From: Candidatus Nanoarchaeia archaeon
GTDB taxonomy: Archaea; Nanobdellota; Nanobdellia; SCGC-AAA011-G17; JAFCDX01
Direction of reading: 5' to 3'
NCBI GenBank assembly: GCA_028716945.1
Contig: JAQUOT010000001.1
Span: 402,471 to 466,470 of the forward strand
DNA: 64,000 nucleotides
The notes beneath the pieces are model-generated. The model saw only the letters and a list, made by a program, of their open reading frames with translations, was not told the DNA's origin and did not search any database. Below, in pieces: positions 6,273 through 46,042 of the stretch. How positions within the stretch are numbered: the stretch's first letter is position 1; the number at the start of each line of letters is the position of its first letter. The translations under genes were made by a program, and so were the position numbers.

Positions 6273-6372
6273 TGGGGCTACCCGGATTTGAACCGGGGTC
6301 GCGAGGTCCCAAACCTCGAATCATAATTGCTCTTGGTTTTATGATTACCAATCCAAGCTGGACCATAGCCCC
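6273..6372 (-). tRNA. tRNA-Pro(UGG) containing a 27-nt intron in the D-loop (non-canonical position)
   Basis: - Acceptor GGGGCUA/UAGCCCC with discriminator A.
- T-arm CCCGG-UUCAAAU-CCGGG.
- Anticodon stem CGAGG/CCUCG with loop UUUGGGA.
- D-stem GUCC/UGAU is split after AGCUUGG by AUUGGUAAUCAUAAAACCAAGAGCAAU (6326..6352).
- The intron 3' part CCAAG pairs with exon CUUGG. Confidence 0.7.
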
Positions 6373-23943: not shown

Positions 23944-24522
23944 ATGAAACCAAGAAGAGAATTAACTAAACAAGAACAACTAGATTTAAATTTATTTCTT
24001 TCAAAAGCAGTTCCATTGTGTGCACAAGGTAAGCCACACATATTTCAAGCTAGTAAGGGATCGATGATGTTTATTAAAGAATCAAAAGATATCAAGACAA
24101 AGGAAAAAGGCCCTCTCGTACTTCCTTCAGGAAATTTAATTATTGTTGATGAATACTGGGGAAATATAGAAAAACTTACCGGACAATATATAATTTGTTT
24201 AGAAGATATAGATAATCCCATTTTTAAATTAGATTACCGTTCAGAAGCAATGACAAGGGGTCTGGAAAAGAATGATAAAGGAGAATTTTTACATAAAAAT
24301 AATATTAAAGAATGTATGCATGCTGCTTTATCTCAAGAAGGAAAAAAATATCCTTGGAGAGGTCCCGAATCTTTTAATTATAAGGGATATAATTATGTTC
24401 ATATTCCATCATGTACTAATATGTATTACTTGGATGGTAGAGAGTATGTTATTGAATCTAGGACCGGAGAACAACTACTTAGAACAAAATATGTTGCATC
24501 AATAATAAACCCTTTTGCATAA
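23944..24522 (+). CDS. hypothetical protein
   Basis: 192 aa ORF with no family-level motif. Confidence 0.4.
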   Translation: MKPRRELTKQEQLDLNLFLSKAVPLCAQGKPHIFQASKGSMMFIKESKDIKTKEKGPLVLPSGNLIIVDEYWGNIEKLTGQYIICLEDIDNPIFKLDYRSEAMTRGLEKNDKGEFLHKNNIKECMHAALSQEGKKYPWRGPESFNYKGYNYVHIPSCTNMYYLDGREYVIESRTGEQLLRTKYVASIINPFA

Positions 24523-24533
24523 ATTCTAAAAAG

Positions 24534-24618
24534 AGGGCGCAGCAGGACTCGAACCTGCGGATATTCGGGTACTACAACATTTTGCAGCCGAACGCGTTAG
24601 CCGCTTCGCCATACGCCC
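24534..24618 (-). tRNA. tRNA-Cys(GCA) with canonical 12-nt intron after position 37
   Basis: - Acceptor GGGCGUA/UGCGCCC with discriminator U73.
- D-arm GCGA-AGCGGCUA-ACGC.
- Anticodon stem UUCGG/CCGAA with loop CUGCAA[AAUGUUGUAGUA]C.
- T-arm GCAGG-UUCGAGU-CCUGC. Confidence 0.85.
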
Positions 24619-24711
24619 AGATTTTTGAGTATATATGCTTTCTTTATATTTGATTATAAAGCGGGCCTGGTGGGATTTGAACCCACGACCACCTGCTATC
24701 TTCCGATATGG

Positions 24712-25017
24712 CTAGAAGGCAGGTACGCTCTCTGGGGAAGAAGGAAATATATTATTTGACACTTCGCTTAATATAATATCCATAACCCTTCTTAGTAATA
24801 CATCACTTACATATATGCTCGCCGTACCATATTTTGATTTTTTTTCTTTTTGTGGTTTTGAAGCAATTTCAATTAATTTTTTATTTAATTTTAAATTTTT
24901 GCTCCAATATTCTTTTAGTAATAATGTATTACATTTTTTTCCATACTTAATTTTTATTGATTTTTGAGGTAAGTCTTCAATTTTTAAAATTTCAGTTTCA
25001 TTTAAAACTTGTATACC
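24712..25017 (-). pseudogene. continuation of the homing-endonuclease reading frame in a different frame (apparent frameshift); ends at UAG inside the tRNA-Arg anticodon loop
   Basis: The open frame encodes ETEILKIEDLPQKSIKIKYGKKCNTLLLKEYWSKN ... SNNIFPSSPESVPAF, about 100 aa. It overlaps the N-terminal ORF by about 15 nt. Together the two frames give about 200 aa, typical of a single-motif LAGLIDADG enzyme. Confidence 0.4.
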
Positions 25018-25328
25018 CTAAAAATTGTTTTAGGGTCATTATTTGTTACTGAAAATCTATACATACTTGATTTTACTCCTTTACTTTTTAAACCCTCTCC
25101 TTCAATAAAACCCATTGCCCAAATAAATTTTTCATTTATTTTGAGGTATCTAGGAAACTTTCTTGAAATTTCTCTTTTTATTCTTCCTTCCGTGATATAG
25201 GAAACTAAAACTTCATTTTTATTTATCGGTTTTACTTTTAAGGGATGTTCATACCCATTTCTATTCAGATAGGTATATTTCCCTTCTAATGTCCTTATCA
25301 GGTCTATATTCAAATTTCCTTCTTCCTA
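24731..25328 (-). mobile_element. large tRNA-Arg D-loop intron carrying a homing-endonuclease ORF
   Basis: Bounded by the two tRNA-Arg exons; a 9-bp terminal helix; contains the two ORF halves below. Confidence 0.55.
25002..25313 (-). CDS. intron-encoded LAGLIDADG-type homing endonuclease, N-terminal part (TTG start; ORF continues in another frame)
   Basis: INEKFIWAMGFIEGEGLKSKGV matches the LAGLIDADG pattern; compare I-CreI NKEFLLYLAGFVDGDGS. 103 aa, then a stop. Confidence 0.5.
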   Translation of the reverse strand: MNIDLIRTLEGKYTYLNRNGYEHPLKVKPINKNEVLVSYITEGRIKREISRKFPRYLKINEKFIWAMGFIEGEGLKSKGVKSSMYRFSVTNNDPKTIFRVYKF

Positions 25329-25434
25329 TCCAGCCTGCGCTACAGGCCCATATAATACTTCTTATAGTTTTATTTATAAACGTTTTGTTATTAAGTATAG
25401 AAAGATTTTAATATATTCTAAATTACTTGATTTT

Positions 25435-28341
25435 ATGGTTAATAAACTATTAAAGATAGATAAAAAGTGGCAGAAAGCTTGGGAAGATAAAAAGGCTTTC
25501 AAAGTAAAAGAAGATCCTAAAAAAAAGAAGTATTATGTTCTTGAGATGTATCCTTATCCTTCAGCTTCTTTCTTACATATGGGACATGTGAGAAATTATA
25601 CTATTGGAGATATTTATGCTAGATTCAAAAGAATGCAAGGTTTTAATATACTTTATCCAATGGGGTATGATTCATTTGGATTGCCTGCTGAAACTGCAGC
25701 AAAAAAAGAAGGAATACACCCAAAAAAATATGCAGAAAGTTCTATAAAAAAAATAATGGAATATCAGAAAGCTTTAGGCAATAGTTATGATTGGAGCAGG
25801 ATTCTTTCAAGTCACGATGTTAATTATTACAAATGGAACCAATATTTTTTCTTGAAATTATTTGAAAAAGGTTTAACTTATAGAAAAAATGCACCTGTAA
25901 ATTGGTGTGAAAAATGTCAATCAGTTCTTGCTAACGAAGAATCTGAAGGAGGAAAATGTTGGAGATGTGACAGCGAAGTTGTACAAAAACCTCTTGAACA
26001 GTGGTTCTTTAAGATAACTGCATATGCTGACAGACTTCTTAATGATTTAAATAAAATAGATTGGCCAGAAAAAATAAAATTAATGCAGAAAAATTGGATA
26101 GGTAAATCTCATGGAACAGAAATTTTATTTAAGATTAATAATGAAAATTGGCCAATATTTACAACAAGAGCAGATACAATTTATGGAGTAACTTTTATGG
26201 TTATCTCTGCACAACATCCAAAATTATTTGATTTAGTTACAAAAGAACAGAAAAAAGACGTTGATTCTTTCTTAAAGAAATTAAAAACAGTTTCTAAAGA
26301 AGAACTTGAAGAATTAGAAAAAGAAGGAGTATTTACTGGAAGTTATGCAATTAATCCTATAACCAAAGAAAAAGTTCCTGTTTACGCTGGAAATTTTGTT
26401 ATTGCAGATTATGGTTCTGGAATGGTTATGGCAGTTCCTGCTCATGATCAAAGAGATTTTGAATTTGCAAAAAAATATAATATTCCAATTAAAATTGTTA
26501 TTATACCTGAGAAAGAGTTAATTAAAGAAGACGACATGATAAATCGAATGTTCTTAGAAATAAAAAAAATAAATGAATTGATGCAAAAAAATAAGATAAA
26601 AGTTTGGTTCAATGGAACTTTTGGTGTAATCGGGCACTCTAAGAAGATATTCATTAAACCAAGAGATGTTGATTTTGGAGTTTTAGAAAAAGATTATGAA
26701 AAAGCAAAAAAGCTTCTTGTTGGTTTGGGTTACTCAAAAATAGAAGAGAAAGAAAATGAAAAATTTAAATATACATCTTATAAATATGAGGATTTATTTC
26801 TCGAGGTAGGAACATTTGATCACGATTTGGGTAATGAAGTAGCAAATATTAAAGGAATTACTTATCCAATCCCAAATGCAAGGTGGTTAGCTGAATGTTA
26901 TGAGATTACTAAAAACAAAGAGCGTCGACAGGGAAGAGGAGACGACTTTTCTGCTTTATTATTGGGATTACTTTCAGGAAGTATGAAAGAAGCATTTACA
27001 GGTAATGGAACACTAATAAATTCTAAAGAATTCAATGGTACAAATAATTTAGATGCAATAGAAGAAATTACAAAACATCTTGAAAAATTAAAATTAGGTA
27101 AAAAAGTTACTCAATACAAACTAAGAGATTGGATGATTTCTCGTCAGAGGTACTGGGGGACACCAATTCCAATAATTTATTGTGATAAATGTGGAGTAGT
27201 TCCTGTTCCAGAAAAAGATTTACCAGTAACTTTACCTGAAAAAGTTAAATTCGATACAGGAAATCCTTTATCAACAAATAAAGAATTTGTAAATGTTAAA
27301 TGCCCAAAATGTAAAGGTCCTGGAAGAAGAGAAACAGATACTATGGGCGGATTTGTAGATTCTTCATGGTATTTCATAAGATTCTGCGACAATACAAATA
27401 AAAAACAACCTTTTGATAAGAAAAAAGCAAATTATTGGATGCCTGTTGATCAATATATTGGTGGAGCAGAGCATGCAGTTATGCATCTTATGTATGCTAG
27501 ATTCTTTGTAAAAGCACTAAAAGATTTAGGTATAGTTAGTTTTGATGAACCATTTTCAAAACTTTTCAACCAAGGAATTGTTTACAAAGATGGTGCAAAA
27601 ATGTCAAAGAGCAAAGGAAATGTTGTTTATCAAACAGAAATTTCAGAAAAATATGGTATTGATACTGCAAGATTATTCTTAATGTCAATTGCTGCTCCAG
27701 ATGCAGTTATGGAATGGAGAGATGAAGGTGTTGAAAGTAGTTTTAAATTCATAAATAAAGTTATAACTTATTATGAAAACGTAAAATTAGGAAAATCTTC
27801 TGAAAAAGTAGAATCAAAATTAAATAAAACCATAAAAGAAGTTACCGAAGATATAGAATCTTTTAATTATAATATTGCAATAATAAAAATAAGAAAATTA
27901 TTTGAATCTTTTAATAAAGAAGAATCTAAAAATACTTTAGAACCATTCTTGAAATTATTCCATCCTTTCTGTCCACATATCACAGAAGAACTCTGGAGTA
28001 AATTAAAAAATAAAGAATTTTTGAGCTTGGAAGATTGGCCAAAAGCAGATTTGAAAAAAATCAATGAAAAATTCGAACAAGAAGATAAATTAATAGATAA
28101 TTTAACAGAAGATATTAATAATGTTGTTAGAATAATAAAAGAAAAAGGCAATGAACCTAAAAAAGTATTTATTTATACAATTCCAAAAGAAAAAGAAATT
28201 TATTCTAATGAAATAGAATCAATTAAACTAAGAACCACTTTGGATGTAGAAGTATTTGCAGTAAATGATCCTAAGAAACATGATCCTCAGAATAAAGCCA
28301 TTAAATCAAAACCAGGAAAACCAGCATTATATTTGGAATAA
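25435..28341 (+). CDS. leuS: leucyl-tRNA synthetase (archaeal type)
   Basis: HIGH motif (HMGHVRNYTIGD); KMSKS present; CP1 editing domain; 968 aa. Confidence 0.9.
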   Translation: MVNKLLKIDKKWQKAWEDKKAFKVKEDPKKKKYYVLEMYPYPSASFLHMGHVRNYTIGDIYARFKRMQGFNILYPMGYDSFGLPAETAAKKEGIHPKKYAESSIKKIMEYQKALGNSYDWSRILSSHDVNYYKWNQYFFLKLFEKGLTYRKNAPVNWCEKCQSVLANEESEGGKCWRCDSEVVQKPLEQWFFKITAYADRLLNDLNKIDWPEKIKLMQKNWIGKSHGTEILFKINNENWPIFTTRADTIYGVTFMVISAQHPKLFDLVTKEQKKDVDSFLKKLKTVSKEELEELEKEGVFTGSYAINPITKEKVPVYAGNFVIADYGSGMVMAVPAHDQRDFEFAKKYNIPIKIVIIPEKELIKEDDMINRMFLEIKKINELMQKNKIKVWFNGTFGVIGHSKKIFIKPRDVDFGVLEKDYEKAKKLLVGLGYSKIEEKENEKFKYTSYKYEDLFLEVGTFDHDLGNEVANIKGITYPIPNARWLAECYEITKNKERRQGRGDDFSALLLGLLSGSMKEAFTGNGTLINSKEFNGTNNLDAIEEITKHLEKLKLGKKVTQYKLRDWMISRQRYWGTPIPIIYCDKCGVVPVPEKDLPVTLPEKVKFDTGNPLSTNKEFVNVKCPKCKGPGRRETDTMGGFVDSSWYFIRFCDNTNKKQPFDKKKANYWMPVDQYIGGAEHAVMHLMYARFFVKALKDLGIVSFDEPFSKLFNQGIVYKDGAKMSKSKGNVVYQTEISEKYGIDTARLFLMSIAAPDAVMEWRDEGVESSFKFINKVITYYENVKLGKSSEKVESKLNKTIKEVTEDIESFNYNIAIIKIRKLFESFNKEESKNTLEPFLKLFHPFCPHITEELWSKLKNKEFLSLEDWPKADLKKINEKFEQEDKLIDNLTEDINNVVRIIKEKGNEPKKVFIYTIPKEKEIYSNEIESIKLRTTLDVEVFAVNDPKKHDPQNKAIKSKPGKPALYLE

Positions 28342-31763: not shown

Positions 31764-33902
31764 TTATTCTAAAATAGCTTTTATTCTTCTAATTCCTGCA
31801 GCTATTGATTCTTCCTTAATAATTTTGAACTTTCCTAATTCTTTTGTATTTTTAACATGAGGACCCATACATATTTCTTTTGAATAGTCTCCAATTGAAT
31901 ATACAGAAACCTTTTCAGGATATTTAGCTCCAAATTCATGTTGTGCTCCAGATTTTATTGCTCTGTCTAGAGGCATTTCTTCTCTTATTATATCTAATTT
32001 TTTATTAATTACTTTATTTACTTCATCTTCTACTTTTTTAACTTCTTCATCTGTTAGTTTTCTATCAAAGTTAAAATCAAATCTTAATCTTTCTGGAGTA
32101 ATATTAGAACCTTTTTGTTTTATTTCTTTGGATAAAATTCTTCTTAATGCTTCGTTCAATAGATGTGTAGCAGTATGTAATTTTGCAGTTATTTCAGATG
32201 CTTCAGATAATCCGCCTTTGAATTTCTTTTCAGCTCCGACTCTGGATAATTCTTGATGTTTTTCAAACTCTTTATTAAAACCTTTTTCATCTACATCAAT
32301 TCCTTTTTCTTTTGCTAATTCTTGAACCATTTCTAATGGAAAACCATAACTTTGGAATAATAAGAAGGCATCTTTACCAGAAATATTTTTATCAGATATT
32401 TTTTCAAATTGTTTGATTCCTTTTTCAAGTGTTTCTCTAAATCTTACTTCTTCGTTTTCAAGTTCTTTCATAATGAAATTATATTTTTGCTTTAATTCAG
32501 GATAATCTTCTTTGTACATTTCAATTACAATTTTTGCAATAGGTTTTGTTAAATTATCTTTAATTCCTAATAAATTTCCATGTCTTATTGCTCTTCTGAT
32601 AAATCTTCTTAAAATATATCCTTGATCTACATTGCTTGGAAGAACATCTCTTTCATCACCTAAAATAAAAGTTGCTGCTCTCATATGATCTGAAATAATT
32701 CTAACGCTTTTTTCATTTTCTTTTGAAATTGATTTTAGTTTAGCTAATTTTTTAATTTCTTCAATTAAAGGTAAGAAAAGTTCTGTTTCATAAACATTTT
32801 TTTTACCTTCCAACATAGCAGAAGTTCTTTCTACTCCCATTCCTGTATCAACATTCTTTTGTTTAAGAGGAATGAAAGCAATTAAGTGATCTTCTATAAC
32901 TTTTTTTATTGATTTGATGTCGGTGTAATGTTTAGATAAGATGCCTAATTTTGCTGCAGTTTCTATATTTTTTTCATCATGATCAAAATAAATAACTTCT
33001 TCTGGTTGAAGATCAAATGTTTTTAAGAGGGTATTAAAATACTCAGGGTTATCTTTTTTTATTCCTTTTTCTTCTAATGAAAAGGCTTGCCAATTTGTAT
33101 CTAATTCTGGATTATAATTCTGCACTAATTTAAGCCCTTTTTCTTTAAATTTATTAACAACCAATATACTATGACTATTAAAATTATTAATAGTATCTAA
33201 TAATTCCTTATTAAGGTTAAACTTATCATCATAAAGGCAATACATTCCATCAACTAATATAAGTCTCTTATCTTTTTTGTACCCCATGAAAACATCATTC
33301 CAAATTTCTATGAATTTTCCACAAGAACATCCAGGTTTGCAATTTTTAGAACATTTTTCTTTTCCTGTATCTATAAACATTTCAGTACAAGGACCACAAG
33401 GACCTGTTGTTCCTGCAGGACCCCACCAATTATCTACCTTTGGTAGGAAATATATTCTTTCTTTTGGTATTCCTAAAGATTGCCAAGTTTTTGCACTTTC
33501 TTCATCTTTTGGAGCATCTTTATCTCCTGCGAATACTGTAACAGATAACAAATTTTTATCAAATTTTAAGACTTTAGTTAAAAATTCAAAGCTATATTCA
33601 ATTGCTTCTTTTTTAAAATAATCTCCTAAAGACCAATTTCCTAACATTTCAAAGAAAGTTAAATGAGCAGGATCACCTACAGAATCAATATCTCCTGTTC
33701 TAATACATTTTTGTACATCAGCAAGTCTTTTACCTAAAGGATGCTTTTGACCCATTAAAAAAGGGACTAATGGATGCATACCTGCCGTTGTAAATAACAC
33801 TGTAGGATCAAATTCTGGTATCAAAGAAGCTGATTTTATAATAGCATGACCTTTAGATTTAAAGAATTCTAGATATTTTTGCTTTAATTCATGTGCTTTC
33901 AT
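31764..33902 (-). CDS. alaS: alanyl-tRNA synthetase, short form lacking the C-Ala domain, with an insertion of about 130 aa in the catalytic domain
   Basis: FTTAGMHPLVPF, GTTGPCGPCTEMF, KNVDTGMGVERT and a C-terminal editing domain ending HVKNTKELGKFKIIKEE. The inserted segment KRLILVDGMYCLYDD ... VIYFDHDEKNIETAAKLGI lies between FMGY and PLKQKNVDTGMG. Confidence 0.85.
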   Translation of the reverse strand: MKAHELKQKYLEFFKSKGHAIIKSASLIPEFDPTVLFTTAGMHPLVPFLMGQKHPLGKRLADVQKCIRTGDIDSVGDPAHLTFFEMLGNWSLGDYFKKEAIEYSFEFLTKVLKFDKNLLSVTVFAGDKDAPKDEESAKTWQSLGIPKERIYFLPKVDNWWGPAGTTGPCGPCTEMFIDTGKEKCSKNCKPGCSCGKFIEIWNDVFMGYKKDKRLILVDGMYCLYDDKFNLNKELLDTINNFNSHSILVVNKFKEKGLKLVQNYNPELDTNWQAFSLEEKGIKKDNPEYFNTLLKTFDLQPEEVIYFDHDEKNIETAAKLGILSKHYTDIKSIKKVIEDHLIAFIPLKQKNVDTGMGVERTSAMLEGKKNVYETELFLPLIEEIKKLAKLKSISKENEKSVRIISDHMRAATFILGDERDVLPSNVDQGYILRRFIRRAIRHGNLLGIKDNLTKPIAKIVIEMYKEDYPELKQKYNFIMKELENEEVRFRETLEKGIKQFEKISDKNISGKDAFLLFQSYGFPLEMVQELAKEKGIDVDEKGFNKEFEKHQELSRVGAEKKFKGGLSEASEITAKLHTATHLLNEALRRILSKEIKQKGSNITPERLRFDFNFDRKLTDEEVKKVEDEVNKVINKKLDIIREEMPLDRAIKSGAQHEFGAKYPEKVSVYSIGDYSKEICMGPHVKNTKELGKFKIIKEESIAAGIRRIKAILE

Positions 33903-45811: not shown

Positions 45812-45897
45812 TGGGACTGCCCGGATTTGAACCGGGGTCGCGAGGTTTTTAGCATAGTCCCTAACCTCGAATCATGACCAAGCTGGACCACAATCCC
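45812..45897 (-). tRNA. tRNA-Pro-like paralog with enlarged 19-nt anticodon loop (probable intron); anticodon unresolved (A at nominal position 34)
   Basis: Acceptor GGGAUUG/CAGUCCC-A. D-arm, anticodon stem (CGAGG/CCUCG), variable loop (CGAC) and T-arm are identical to the tRNA-Pro at 6273..6372. The loop is UUAGGGACUAUGCUAAAAA. The gene lies immediately upstream of proS. Confidence 0.5.
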
Positions 45898-45901
45898 TTG
45901 A

Positions 45902-45973
45902 TGGGTCTACTGGGATTCGAACCCAGATCAACTCGTCCGAGGCGAGACATGCTATCCATTGCACTATAGACCC
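45902..45973 (-). tRNA. tRNA, probably Arg(UCG), with unusual C at position 33
   Basis: GGGUCUA-UA-GUGC-AAUGGAUA-GCAU-G-UCUCG-CCUCGGA-CGAGU-UGAU-CUGGG-UUCGAAU-CCCAG-UAGACCC-A; 72 nt; no intron. Confidence 0.5.
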
Positions 45974-46042
45974 AAAATCCTAAAGAGAAACCTATTTATA
46001 TAATATATACCTTCTAAAACTAAGGATTTAAGAGGTGTAAAA

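Follow-up and report, generated by a model that had tools for sequence, protein, structure and literature searches.

A tRNA-Arg(UCU) gene of a DPANN archaeon with a putatively mobile, protein-spliced D-loop intron and a disrupted LAGLIDADG-type reading frame

Organization of the Interrupted tRNA-Arg(UCU) Gene

Direct reading of the 64-kb stretch of DNA analyzed here (the window) places a single tRNA-Arg(UCU) gene, split into three exons, at 25349..24662 on the minus strand. The exons are parted by a 598-nt intron in the D-loop (25327..24730) and by a canonical 15-nt intron (24712..24698), and the whole interrupted unit spans 688 nt. Exon 1 (25328..25349, minus strand; GGGCCUGUAGCGCAGGCUGGAU) supplies the acceptor 5' strand, the D-stem 5' strand, and the D-loop up to position 20a, as delimited by sequence, in silico splicing, and covariation. 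Its first part, GGGCCUG-UA-GCGC-AGGCUGG, occupies 25349..25330; a preliminary description of this DNA had the same piece at 25348..25329, one position off. The 3' body (24729..24662) reads as had been described there, with the D-stem 3' strand GCGU, an anticodon arm with UCU and a 15-nt intron at 37/38, a T-arm, the acceptor strand CAGGCCC, and the discriminator G. It is divided into exon 2 (24713..24729, minus strand; A21, D-stem 3' strand, anticodon stem 5' strand, and anticodon loop to A37, with the anticodon at 24716..24714), assigned from sequence and in silico splicing, and exon 3 (24662..24697, minus strand; A38, anticodon stem 3' strand, variable loop, T-arm, acceptor 3' strand, and discriminator), for which covariation was also used. 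Within the 64 kb, the pattern GGGCCTGNNGCGC is unique, with 0 occurrences expected in 100 shuffles.

Joining the exons in silico yields a cloverleaf of 75 nt, rather than the 74 nt given previously, which ARAGORN calls as tRNA-Arg(tct); the unspliced gene receives no call from ARAGORN and none from Rfam. The D-loop of the joined product is the canonical AGGCUGGAUA with A21 in place. The predicted joints (marked by a slash) are GGCUGGAU/AGCGU between exons 1 and 2 (GGAU/AGCG) and CUUCUA/AGCAGG between exons 2 and 3, and an intron-less tRNA-Arg(UCU) gene would read ...GTAGCGCAGCCTGGAT/AGCGCATCTGCC... around the D-loop insertion point, where no palindromic target site is evident by eye.

Upstream of the tRNA 5' end, at a distance of 22-31 nt, lies a TATA-box-like archaeal element, TTTATAAATA (25371..25380, minus strand). 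An element at equal distance precedes the tRNAs of the two orthologous loci described below (TTTATAAATA in L001 and TTTTTAAA in L006), and the element probably serves as the promoter. The host is assigned to the archaea because of its TATA-type promoters, the canonical introns in neighboring tRNAs, a PACE-CTERM S-layer protein, and the NCBI name of the genome, Candidatus Nanoarchaeia archaeon (a MAG).

Boundaries and Fold of the D-Loop Intron

The D-loop intron (24730..25327, minus strand) starts with AUAGGAAGAAGG and ends with CCUUCUUCCCCAGA; it is of the bulge-helix-bulge (BHB) type and nearly all coding, its noncoding part amounting to only 14 nt. A central 4-bp helix is formed between CUGG at the end of exon 1 (25330..25333) and CCAG near the intron 3' end (24735..24732). 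CUGG is followed by a 3-nt bulge, AUA (25329..25327), which holds the predicted 5' splice site between 25328 and 25327, and the 3-nt AGA (24731..24729), opposite A14-G16, holds the predicted 3' splice site between 24730 and 24729. Both sites were set by the rule that each 3-nt bulge is cleaved behind its second nucleotide, a rule that reproduces the 37/38 site of the canonical intron in the same tRNA. That smaller intron (24698..24712, minus strand; GCCAUAUCGGAAGAU), delimited by sequence and in silico splicing, has a central helix of C32-C35 (CUUC) paired with GAAG and is missing from the orthologs L001 and L006.

Beyond the central helix, the termini of the large intron pair as an inner closing helix of GGAAGAAGGAAAU (25314..25326, minus strand) with AUUUCCUUCUUCC (24736..24748, minus strand). 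The terminal pairing had been recognized earlier at a length of 9 bp, and its actual length is 13 bp. CUGG and CCAG, which had likewise been proposed to pair, do so in the fold of a mini-precursor (-64.8 kcal/mol, z = -6.2). In each of the three loci, the architecture of CUGG/CCAG, AUA bulge, and 13-bp helix comes out as the fold of minimum energy, with CUGG/CCAG invariant among them. Measured against the architecture of a BHB motif (a 4-bp central helix in an hBHBh' or a relaxed HBh' setting), the junction corresponds to the relaxed form. The 3' splice site is situated in a 3x3 internal loop adjoining the D-stem, not in a clean bulge, and would therefore call for a splicing endonuclease of broad specificity, such as the (alpha-beta)2 or epsilon2 type. 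Other intron-containing tRNAs in the window imply that the host carries a tRNA splicing endonuclease. No Rfam model for a group I or group II intron matches the region 24400..25500 at E<=10. A T5 run within the intron (25024..25020) could end some archaeal transcripts.

The Intron Reading Frame and Its Frameshift

The intron ORF is divided between two frames, both defined by alignment with homologs. The N-terminal part (25002..25313, minus strand) starts with TTG and encodes 103 aa, including the motif AMGFIEGEG, before an out-of-frame TAA that follows a frameshift. The C-terminal part (24712..25017, minus strand) continues in the -1 frame for ~100 stop-free codons, crosses the 3' splice site of the intron, and ends at a UAG (24714..24712) whose first two bases are U36 and A37 and whose third opens the small intron. 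In tblastn, residues 1-100 and 101-200 of an intact homolog fall in these separate frames, which meet at 25014, and nucleotide alignment with intact relatives reveals a single base missing between 25014 and 25013 (GGGTA^TACAAG on the minus strand, where intact relatives encode R-V-L-Q). Both the overlapping frames, the second closing in the anticodon loop, and a frameshift near 25002..25017 had been anticipated in the preliminary description.

The window copy of the ORF is thus not intact, as it carries the 1-nt deletion and has TTG instead of ATG. A real lesion is more likely than a random error, because the 103-aa product is identical to MDD5133132.1 and MDD5587976.1, the truncated products in two NCBI MAG records, where it is named "hypothetical protein". 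The candidate endonuclease gene appears to have been just inactivated: after the frameshift the frame stays open for ~100 codons with every invariant residue kept, and the GC content of the intron is 26%, against 27% for the whole window. With the ORF broken, no endonuclease can be made from this locus. Since the ORF runs past the 3' splice site, a full-length product could come only from the unspliced precursor or, with another tail, from a circular intron. A programmed frameshift was rejected, since a slippery site is absent and the ORF of the orthologs is unshifted. An endless ORF on a circular intron was likewise discarded, given that circular reading of L001 and L006 stops after 10-20 extra codons.

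Orthologous Loci and Covariation

The repaired ORF is 59-61% identical to intact 200-aa proteins of two other metagenomic archaea, encoded in introns at the same site. Both loci (L001/L021, from JGI 3300002502 and Ga0209542, and L006, from GCA_017973895.1) contain tRNA-Arg(UCU) with the same junction motif and a 598-nt intron with an intact 200-aa ORF. L001/L021 is syntenic with the window locus, in that it adjoins a divergently transcribed class I aminoacyl-tRNA synthetase. In L001 and L006, a GGAGG Shine-Dalgarno-like sequence lies within the 5' strand of the closing helix, 8-9 nt before the ATG, and the ORF terminates at a UAA in the anticodon loop; neither intron has the T5 run.

Across the three sequences, 99% of the cells in paired positions are paired, and 6 pairs are changed on both sides. 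Two of the compensatory pairs belong to the intron closing helix and four to tRNA stems (acceptor, T-stem, and anticodon stem). Among the latter, acceptor pair 6:67 (U-A vs C-G) joins exons 650 nt apart. This level of covariation was reached by 0/500 shuffles and by no slid control. The anatomy of the gene, together with two independent orthologous loci of identical intron length and these compensatory changes, upholds the proposal that the insertion is a BHB-like cis-intron of the D-loop. No intron-less tRNA-Arg(UCU) allele of the same lineage was found; in L007/L008, an uninterrupted tRNA-Arg(UCU) gene has a member of the ORF family 26 nt upstream.

A Family of Small Proteins Linked to tRNA Genes

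Over its full length, the repaired product can be aligned with 6 intact proteins, with identities of 36-61%; it belongs to a family of ~190-aa proteins for which there is no Pfam or NCBIfam model. G68, G72, E73, and G74 are invariant in 16 family members and the window copy. AMGFIEGEG has the form of a LAGLIDADG motif that ends the first helix and carries a conserved acidic residue, and in the predicted model it comes after a helix at 61-67. E73 aligns with the catalytic D21 of I-DmoI, and GEG falls on the GDG of the first LAGLIDADG motif of that enzyme. When a core-domain profile was compared with 177,635 PDB sequences, the best six matches were all I-DmoI entries, but at E = 0.023-0.045. Profile searches also matched, at E = 1e-11 to 1e-8, proteins of two domains in which Pfam finds LAGLIDADG_3 above the cut-off, and a joint profile built with these relatives matches PI-PfuI.

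The earlier assignment of the ORF to the LAGLIDADG type is favored by the motif and by the ranking of I-DmoI, whereas the Pfam check of the joined translation came back empty: the window protein has no match to LAGLIDADG_1, _2, or _3 at E<=10. Only one of the 16 members (P0001) matches LAGLIDADG_3, at E = 0.18, which is below the cut-off, so that Pfam support is transitive only. Single-sequence searches of Pfam and PDB with the repaired ORF and with each half gave no match, nor did PDB searches with a first six-sequence family profile or with family member P0036. Foldseek against PDB with full-length and core-domain models returned nothing significant, the top matches being FtsZ and IspF-like folds at E>=0.003. 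An hhalign comparison of the family with the Pfam-recognized second domains of the two-domain relatives gave a probability of 2%. NCBIfam has no match for ten family members or relatives, and all are unnamed in their source databases. In none of the standard tests, taken singly, does the LAGLIDADG assignment reach significance. The family also has an added N-terminal β-rich region (~55 aa) and an inserted helix that separates strands 3 and 4.

A locus search with the six-sequence family alignment showed that most family members are free-standing genes adjoining tRNA genes. In Woesearchaeota and other archaea, such members have their own promoter and lie ~100 nt or less from genes for tRNA-Met/Ile(CAU), tRNA-Ser, or tRNA-Arg. 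Relatives in Nitrososphaerales (L014, L022, L009, and L028) display a copy of a tRNA 5' end, followed by the ORF and a complete tRNA; the complete tRNA is tRNA-Arg(CCU), with a mini-intron kept at the same D-loop site. The gene family is patchy across distant archaeal phyla and often fragmentary. For one member (P0002), the public JGI gene call begins inside tRNA exon 1.

Proposed Mechanism and Alternative Explanations

The locus is probably a functional tRNA-Arg(UCU) gene of a DPANN archaeon that carries a mobile, protein-spliced D-loop intron. From the gene anatomy, the conservation and covariation across loci, and the homology of the ORF, we infer the following course. The tRNA promoter would drive transcription of the whole 688-nt unit, as an ORF that begins 14 nt into the intron leaves no space for an internal promoter. 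In the transcript, the intron ends would pair as the 13-bp helix and, with CUGG/CCAG and the D-stem, form the relaxed BHB. The archaeal tRNA splicing endonuclease would then cut at both D-loop splice sites and also take out the 15-nt canonical intron, after which an RNA ligase would join the exons to the 75-nt tRNA; the intron is probably circularized. The intron is predicted to encode a homing endonuclease of the single-motif LAGLIDADG type, whose intact form (as in L001 and L006) would cut an intron-less tRNA-Arg(UCU) gene near the D-loop, and repair would copy the intron in. Loss of the endonuclease gene after fixation of the intron is the expected next stage of such elements. In the window copy, that gene, which has TTG instead of ATG, would have been just inactivated by the 1-nt deletion, while the intron would still be spliced.

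It is decidedly unlikely that the tRNA is instead assembled in trans, from two separate transcripts that meet via the 13-bp helix as "leader" in the manner of Nanoarchaeum split tRNAs, with a promoter for the 3' piece and the ORF as an ordinary gene between the tRNA halves. In three lineages the halves are co-linear on one strand with a spacing of exactly 598 nt, and they are bridged by an ORF that begins 14 nt past exon 1 without a promoter of its own, hence co-transcribed with exon 1, and that reads straight into exon 2. A closing helix beside a splice motif does resemble a split-tRNA leader duplex. The T5 run could terminate transcription, but the intact introns of L001 and L006 lack it, and the AT-rich, TATA-like AATAATATATTT ~20 nt upstream of the helix 3' strand is one of the TATA-like strings that occur everywhere in a genome of 27% GC. 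Another possibility is that a small mobile cassette has destroyed the gene and a copy elsewhere supplies the tRNA. The portion of the genome examined is 64 kb of a 536-kb contig, and another, uninterrupted tRNA-Arg(UCU) gene may lie outside it. In Nitrososphaerales, moreover, the ORF lies between a second copy of a tRNA 5' fragment and a whole tRNA, as at the integration sites of mobile elements (PMC3293823). At the window locus, however, there is no duplicated fragment, the halves are perfectly complementary and co-vary in three lineages (acceptor 6:67, T-stem, anticodon stem), a conserved splice motif with a co-varying closing helix delimits the insertion, and in silico splicing gives back the canonical D-loop; a dead gene is very unlikely.

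The spliced intron might also encode something other than an endonuclease, namely a LAGLIDADG-derived maturase, a DNA- or RNA-binding factor, or an unrelated GxxxGEG fold with a tRNA-linked role. WhiA is a non-nuclease LAGLIDADG derivative. The lack of a significant match to any standard LAGLIDADG model or in Foldseek, the additional N-terminal region and inserted helix, and the mostly free-standing genes with their own promoters beside tRNAs, which could mean a tRNA-related cellular function, speak for such a protein. This is nevertheless unlikely: the residue aligned with the catalytic D21 of I-DmoI is invariant throughout the family, the nearest recognizable relatives are two-domain LAGLIDADG_3 proteins and endonucleases encoded by introns or inteins, and the patchy, often fragmentary distribution with a broken copy here matches a selfish element rather than a housekeeping factor. 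A self-splicing intron of group I or group II is exceedingly improbable, in view of the absence of an Rfam intron match, the 14 noncoding nucleotides that give no space for a ribozyme core, the BHB junctions, and the insertion in the D-loop rather than the anticodon loop, even though homing-endonuclease group I introns are found in bacterial tRNA (PMC13011429) and archaeal rRNA genes (PMC6125680).

Comparison with Known Introns

For a mobile, protein-spliced intron, the closest precedents are archaeal rRNA BHB introns that encode LAGLIDADG enzymes, such as I-DmoI (Desulfurococcus mobilis 23S), I-PorI, I-ApeI, and I-Tsp061I. In Thermoproteales, 16S rRNA introns are of the BHB type with LAGLIDADG homing endonucleases (PMC4496867). 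Our search of the open-access literature could not find a description of an archaeal tRNA intron bearing an endonuclease gene, a situation known for archaeal rRNA introns; within the scope of that search, the undescribed status suggested in the preliminary description holds. The window intron shares with the rRNA introns its predicted splicing by protein enzymes, an interior nearly filled by a LAGLIDADG-type ORF, and the expected cycle of invasion, fixation, and ORF decay. Unlike them, it sits in a tRNA gene, at a D-loop site, and its ORF extends over the closing helix and across the 3' splice site to a stop in the anticodon loop. The protein also differs from rRNA intron endonucleases in being too divergent for Pfam and, with one LAGLIDADG motif, would be expected to form a homodimer, whereas I-DmoI has two motifs.

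Short noncanonical tRNA introns in the D-loop, T-loop, and other positions have been described in Thermoproteales, ARMAN, and DPANN archaea (PMC4090602, PMC4033280). Such introns abound in archaeal tRNA genes, above all in Thermoproteales and DPANN lineages. The window intron resembles them in its relaxed BHB, in the canonical 37/38 intron of the same tRNA, and in the need for a broad-specificity splicing endonuclease (PMC5829648). The known examples are tens of nucleotides long and noncoding, in contrast to 598 nt with a candidate mobility gene. These reviews refer to the spread of such introns as "intron transposition" and give no mechanism, mentioning neither homing nor ORFs (PMC4033280, PMC4090602). 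Among bacterial tRNA group I introns, 12/333 have homing-endonuclease genes, including a LAGLIDADG gene in cyanobacterial tRNA-Arg(CCU) (PMC13011429). Those introns share with the window locus a tRNA host gene (in the cyanobacterial case again a tRNA-Arg), an intron of >500 nt, an endonuclease ORF, and escape from standard tRNA finders, but they are self-splicing ribozymes in the anticodon loop, while the window intron has no ribozyme match and occupies the D-loop of an archaeal tRNA. Finally, Caldiarchaeum subterraneum has a tRNA fragment, an insertion, and a complete tRNA, with an ORF of 813 bp predicted to be recombinase-like (PMC3293823). The Nitrososphaerales relatives resemble this layout, with their tRNA 5'-end copy, ORF, and complete tRNA, and the long closing helix of the window intron resembles the split-tRNA leaders of Nanoarchaeum. 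Unlike both systems, the window locus has co-linear halves and no duplicated fragment.

Implications for tRNA Intron Mobility

Homing endonucleases mobilize archaeal rRNA introns and bacterial group I tRNA introns. An endonuclease-bearing, protein-spliced tRNA intron would link these two kinds of mobility and make the question testable. We suggest only tentatively, and with somewhat more doubt than confidence, that an undescribed single-motif LAGLIDADG clade drives the mobility of noncanonical archaeal tRNA introns and has been caught in three states: the DPANN D-loop intron, the relic-tRNA arrangement of Nitrososphaerales, and free-standing genes near tRNAs. If this last reading is true, it would provide the first concrete mechanism for the spread and shrinkage of protein-spliced archaeal tRNA introns, by homing and then ORF loss, and a present-day example of the endonuclease-bearing mobile introns from which such introns have been proposed to descend. 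New small homing endonucleases directed at tRNA-gene sequences might be drawn from the ~190-aa family. As the tRNA-Arg gene was missed by ARAGORN and Rfam, the tRNA sets of such reduced genomes may look wrongly incomplete.

A second tRNA in the window, tRNA-Pro (6273..6372), had been reported to have an intron at the same D-loop position. The gene does hold ~26-28 extra nt there, with exact splice sites that are ambiguous; a clean BHB was rejected for this insert, because two registers compete and neither is canonical. Its junction (CUUGG-AU...CCAAG-AG) is similar to that of tRNA-Arg (CUGG-AU...CCAG-AG), and from this likeness, the sole basis for the comparison, the mini-intron may be a relative that arose by spread between tRNAs.

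An ORF-Bearing D-Loop Intron in tRNA-Arg(UCU)

A minus-strand tRNA-Arg(UCU) gene was read directly as three exons separated by two introns. Downstream of a TATA-like box (TTTATAAATA, 25380..25371), exon 1 (GGGCCUG-UA-GCGC-AGGCUGGAU, 25349..25328) is followed by an AT-rich intron of 598 nt (25327..24730), exon 2 (A-GCGU-A-CCUGC-CUUCUA, 24729..24713), a small 15-nt insert (GCCAUAUCGGAAGAU, 24712..24698), and exon 3 (A-GCAGG-UGGUC-GUGGG-UUCAAAU-CCCAC-CAGGCCC-G, 24697..24662). The preliminary description had identified these pieces accurately, apart from coordinates for the 5′ piece that were shifted by one relative to the actual sequence. This 5′ piece is unique in the window, its pattern GGGCCTGNNGCGC giving one match with none expected (100 shuffles). 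We judge it likely that a functional tRNA-Arg(UCU) here carries a mobile D-loop intron, spliced by endonuclease, whose homing-endonuclease gene has been freshly inactivated in this genome. The earlier reading of a spliceable D-loop cis-intron with an endonuclease ORF was essentially right, with splicing, ORF translation, and DNA cleavage all predicted.

In open-access full texts, we found no description of a protein-coding intron of the bulge-helix-bulge (BHB) type in an archaeal tRNA, in keeping with the earlier statement that ORF-bearing tRNA D-loop introns are rarely if ever described; an earlier description outside these texts is conceivable. Two broad reviews, on tRNA introns and on tRNA gene diversity, contain neither the word "homing" nor the word "ORF". 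LAGLIDADG genes occur in archaeal rRNA introns (PMC4496867, PMC6125680), bacterial tRNA genes carry group I introns with endonuclease genes (PMC13011429), and Caldiarchaeum displays a tRNA fragment, an ORF-bearing insertion, and then a tRNA (PMC3293823). Like I-DmoI-type elements, the present one is of a known kind, but its host gene is a tRNA.

Splice Sites

The motif of the archaeal tRNA splicing endonuclease comprises a 4-bp helix between two 3-nt bulges, with cleavage after the second bulge nucleotide. This rule was calibrated on the 15-nt intron of the same tRNA before use on the large one: C32–C35 (CUUC) pairs with intron GAAG, U36-A37-G and A-U-A38 form the bulges, and the canonical 37/38 site is returned. 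In the large intron, the central helix CUGG/CCAG pairs 25333..25330 with 24735..24732, the 5′ bulge is AUA (25329..25327), and the inner helix is a 13-bp duplex (GGAAGAAGGAAAU/AUUUCCUUCUUCC). The 3′ site falls in AGA (24731..24729), opposite A14-G16 beside the D-stem, and the motif is a relaxed BHB, its 5′ bulge clean and its 3′ site in an internal loop. When the junctions were folded, as the preliminary description had proposed, a mini-precursor adopted the predicted BHB architecture (−64.8 kcal/mol, z = −6.2). Cuts between 25328 and 25327 and between 24730 and 24729, with removal of the 15-nt intron, afforded in silico a 75-nt RNA with the D-loop AGGCUGGAUA. ARAGORN, also proposed earlier, called this RNA as tRNA-Arg(tct) and made no call on the unspliced gene, which the Rfam tRNA model missed as well; both detected the window's four other tRNAs. 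Self-splicing introns were considered through the Rfam group I and II families, which gave no match in 24400..25500 even at E ≤ 10; together with the mere 14 nt of the large intron that lie outside the ORF, this means that splicing must rely on protein enzymes.

Frameshift in the Intron ORF

Frame A (103 aa, containing FIWAMGFIEGEG) runs from TTG at 25313 to TAA at 25002, and frame B has no stop from 25017 until a UAG at 24714..24712, in which U36 and A37 are joined by the initial base of the small intron. The frameshift suspected from these overlapping frames was traced to a 1-nt deletion at 25014/25013. A tblastn search with P0001, an intact 200-aa protein from the metagenomic archaeal locus L006, placed residues 1–100 on 25313..25014 and residues 101–200 on 25014..24715; nucleotide alignment revealed one base absent between 25014 and 25013 (GGGTA-TACAAG versus GTACTTAAG and GTATTACAA). 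With the deletion undone, the joined product matches six full-length proteins of 186–213 aa (36–61% identity, coverage up to 100%) in alignments unbroken over the frame junction. The start codon is TTG in the window copy and ATG in relatives.

The lesion is recent, since the 100 codons downstream of it are stop-free at low GC (intron, 26%; window, 27%) and retain all invariant residues. NCBI has two accessions for an identical truncated 103-aa product, from two contigs belonging to Candidatus Nanoarchaeia MAGs, both labeled "hypothetical protein". This recurrence argues for a real mutation over a sequencing error; the two records could have one shared population as their source.

A Probable Divergent LAGLIDADG Domain

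Pfam and PDB sequence searches with the ORF product returned no match, including none between the joined translation and the Pfam LAGLIDADG families against which the preliminary description had suggested comparing it. NCBIfam yielded no match for the family, no source database names the proteins, and Foldseek gave nothing significant for either structure model. Other comparisons gave positive evidence for such a domain. G68, G72, E73, and G74 are invariant in all 16 members, in a motif located where a helix ends and followed by a strand. A core-domain profile searched against 177,635 PDB sequences retrieved I-DmoI as all of its top six matches (E = 0.023–0.045), aligning lwvlGflkGEG on I-DmoI AYLLGLIIGDG, the aspartate of which is catalytic residue D21. 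A profile search run exhaustively over 1.84 billion representatives found 186 proteins: 14 close members, followed by 350–470-aa proteins at E = 1e-11 to 1e-4. Among ten of the latter scanned, Pfam LAGLIDADG_3 scored above cut-off in six and below it in one, mostly as a second domain just after the family-matching region and in two on that region itself. Their joint profile matches the intein endonuclease PI-PfuI (E = 2.4e-4), and P0001 by itself matches LAGLIDADG_3 at E = 0.18 with the right residues aligned; a profile–profile comparison of the family with the LAGLIDADG_3 second domains was negative. Each supporting line is modest taken singly, and the ORF product is very probably a divergent single-motif LAGLIDADG domain. 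In the family, this domain is extended by ~55 aa of beta-rich N-terminal sequence, and strands 3 and 4 are separated by an inserted helix. That the acidic residue is invariant leads us to infer a putative nuclease activity.

Orthologous Copies

P0001 and P0002, the latter from locus L001 (identical to L021), occupy the same position as the window ORF. At each locus there is a tRNA-Arg(UCU), its exon 1 terminating in ...CCUGGAU; exactly 598 nt of intron follow, and then AGCGC... Both ORFs are intact (200 aa each), start with an ATG 8–9 nt past a GGAGG carried by the closing helix's 5′ strand, and terminate at an anticodon-loop UAA; both genes are without the small 37/38 intron. L001 and the window are syntenic: upstream in L001 is a divergently transcribed class I aminoacyl-tRNA synthetase that matches LeuRS at 25435..28341. 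All three loci have a TATA-like box ~22–32 nt upstream of the tRNA and fold into identical junction architectures.

Covariation was assessed in a small sample, the junctions and exons of these three sequences, with 99% of cells paired. Six pairs carry changes on both sides (acceptor 6:67, 27:43, two closing-helix pairs, and two T-stem pairs), a level reached in 0 of 500 shuffles; slid controls were without such changes. Pair 6:67 spans pieces 650 nt apart and would be hard to explain unless they form one working tRNA.

The 598-nt length is kept in the window (25327..24730), L001 (3024..3621), and L006 despite 39–41% amino-acid divergence of the window copy from the other two, its internal deletion being compensated by one extra base ahead of the start codon. 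In all three loci the ORF crosses the 3′ splice site and stops at U36-A37 plus the next base, in the anticodon loop. The public gene call for P0002 (L001 3001..3642) begins within tRNA exon 1 (LWACSAAWIGGRR...); annotation pipelines therefore read the tRNA 5′ end as coding and miss the tRNA.

Relatives across Archaea

Genome and metagenome scans retrieved relatives in archaea only (Nitrososphaerales, Methanosarcinales, Nanoarchaeia, Woesearchaeota, and one unclassified archaeon), nearly all adjoining tRNA genes. At Nitrososphaerales-type loci (L014 1393..2300; L022 800..1750; L009 220..913; L028 1177..1800), the ORF is preceded by a 15–24-nt copy of the tRNA 5′ end (GGGCCCGUAGCGCAG-UCC...) and followed by a complete multi-intron tRNA-Arg(CCU). 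The mini-intron in the D-loop of this tRNA and the sequence following the upstream copy share their first bases. This order resembles the Caldiarchaeum arrangement (PMC3293823). TATA-like boxes lie upstream of the 5′-end copy, the ORF, and the tRNA. At L007/L008, the tRNA-Arg(UCU) is uninterrupted, and the ORF lies 26 nt upstream of it. Woesearchaeota-type ORFs have their own TATA box; some lie 70–110 nt downstream of a tRNA(CAU), others are convergent with such a gene, and others shortly precede a tRNA-Ser(GCU). The loci suggest a single endonuclease clade with intronic, transitional, and free-standing members.

Free-standing members have a tRNA(CAU) or tRNA-Ser(GCU) gene within ~100 nt, listed as "upstream" (L015/L030, L016/L029, L018, L019, L031, L026, L027, L033), "downstream, opposite strand" (L010–L013, L024), or "downstream" (L036, L037, L020). 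The neighboring tRNA(CAU) of L026, L027, and L033 is interrupted by a T-loop intron. Woesearchaeota-type loci also share a repeated motif, CACTGGACA, sometimes doubled, 6–10 nt upstream of GTGAAGTATATAAA-type TATA boxes and 50–100 nt upstream of the ORF or neighboring gene (L002 2940..2990; L015/L030, L019, L020, L031, L035, L039). It also precedes a different gene in L035, and its role may be that of a regulator site or of a promoter element particular to the lineage.

Other Features of the Window

The source organism is Candidatus Nanoarchaeia archaeon according to NCBI. The window holds intron-containing tRNAs with BHB motifs and encodes a PACE-CTERM S-layer protein, archaeal-type ProRS and GlyRS, and bacterial-type LeuRS and AlaRS. 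For tRNA-Pro(UGG) (6273..6372, minus strand), the preliminary description had reported a 27-nt intron at the same D-loop position. Some 26–28 extra nucleotides do directly follow G18-G19 (Rfam insert, 35 nt), and the junctions CUUGG-AU/U ... CCAAG-AG/C resemble CUGG-AU/A ... CCAG-AG/A of tRNA-Arg (slashes mark boundaries). The splice register is less clear-cut: the tRNA-Arg-like one leaves a 15-nt D-loop, and in the one restoring a normal D-loop the central helix shrinks to 3 bp. The insert and the large tRNA-Arg intron may be related, the former having shrunk.

A second tRNA-Pro (45812..45897, minus strand), 2 nt from tRNA-Arg(UCG) at 45900..45974, has a 12-nt intron whose central helix, UUAG/CUAA, agrees with splicing at the canonical 37/38 site. 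Its spliced anticodon loop, UUAGGGA, has the anticodon AGG with A34; few A34 tRNAs are known from Archaea. Lying 43 nt downstream of tRNA-Arg, another tRNA (24534..24618, minus strand), given by ARAGORN as "tRNA-???" with anticodon "caaa", reads manually as tRNA-Cys(GCA) with a 14-nt canonical intron. LeuRS (25435..28341, plus strand) is of bacterial type by TIGR00396 (903 bits); the match is broken into three stretches, pointing to a large insertion. AlaRS (31764..33902, minus strand) is matched by PRK01584, a short model of bacterial type, and its residues ~232–337 resemble a HAD hydrolase; the two enzymes suggest horizontally acquired or remodeled synthetases in a DPANN genome.
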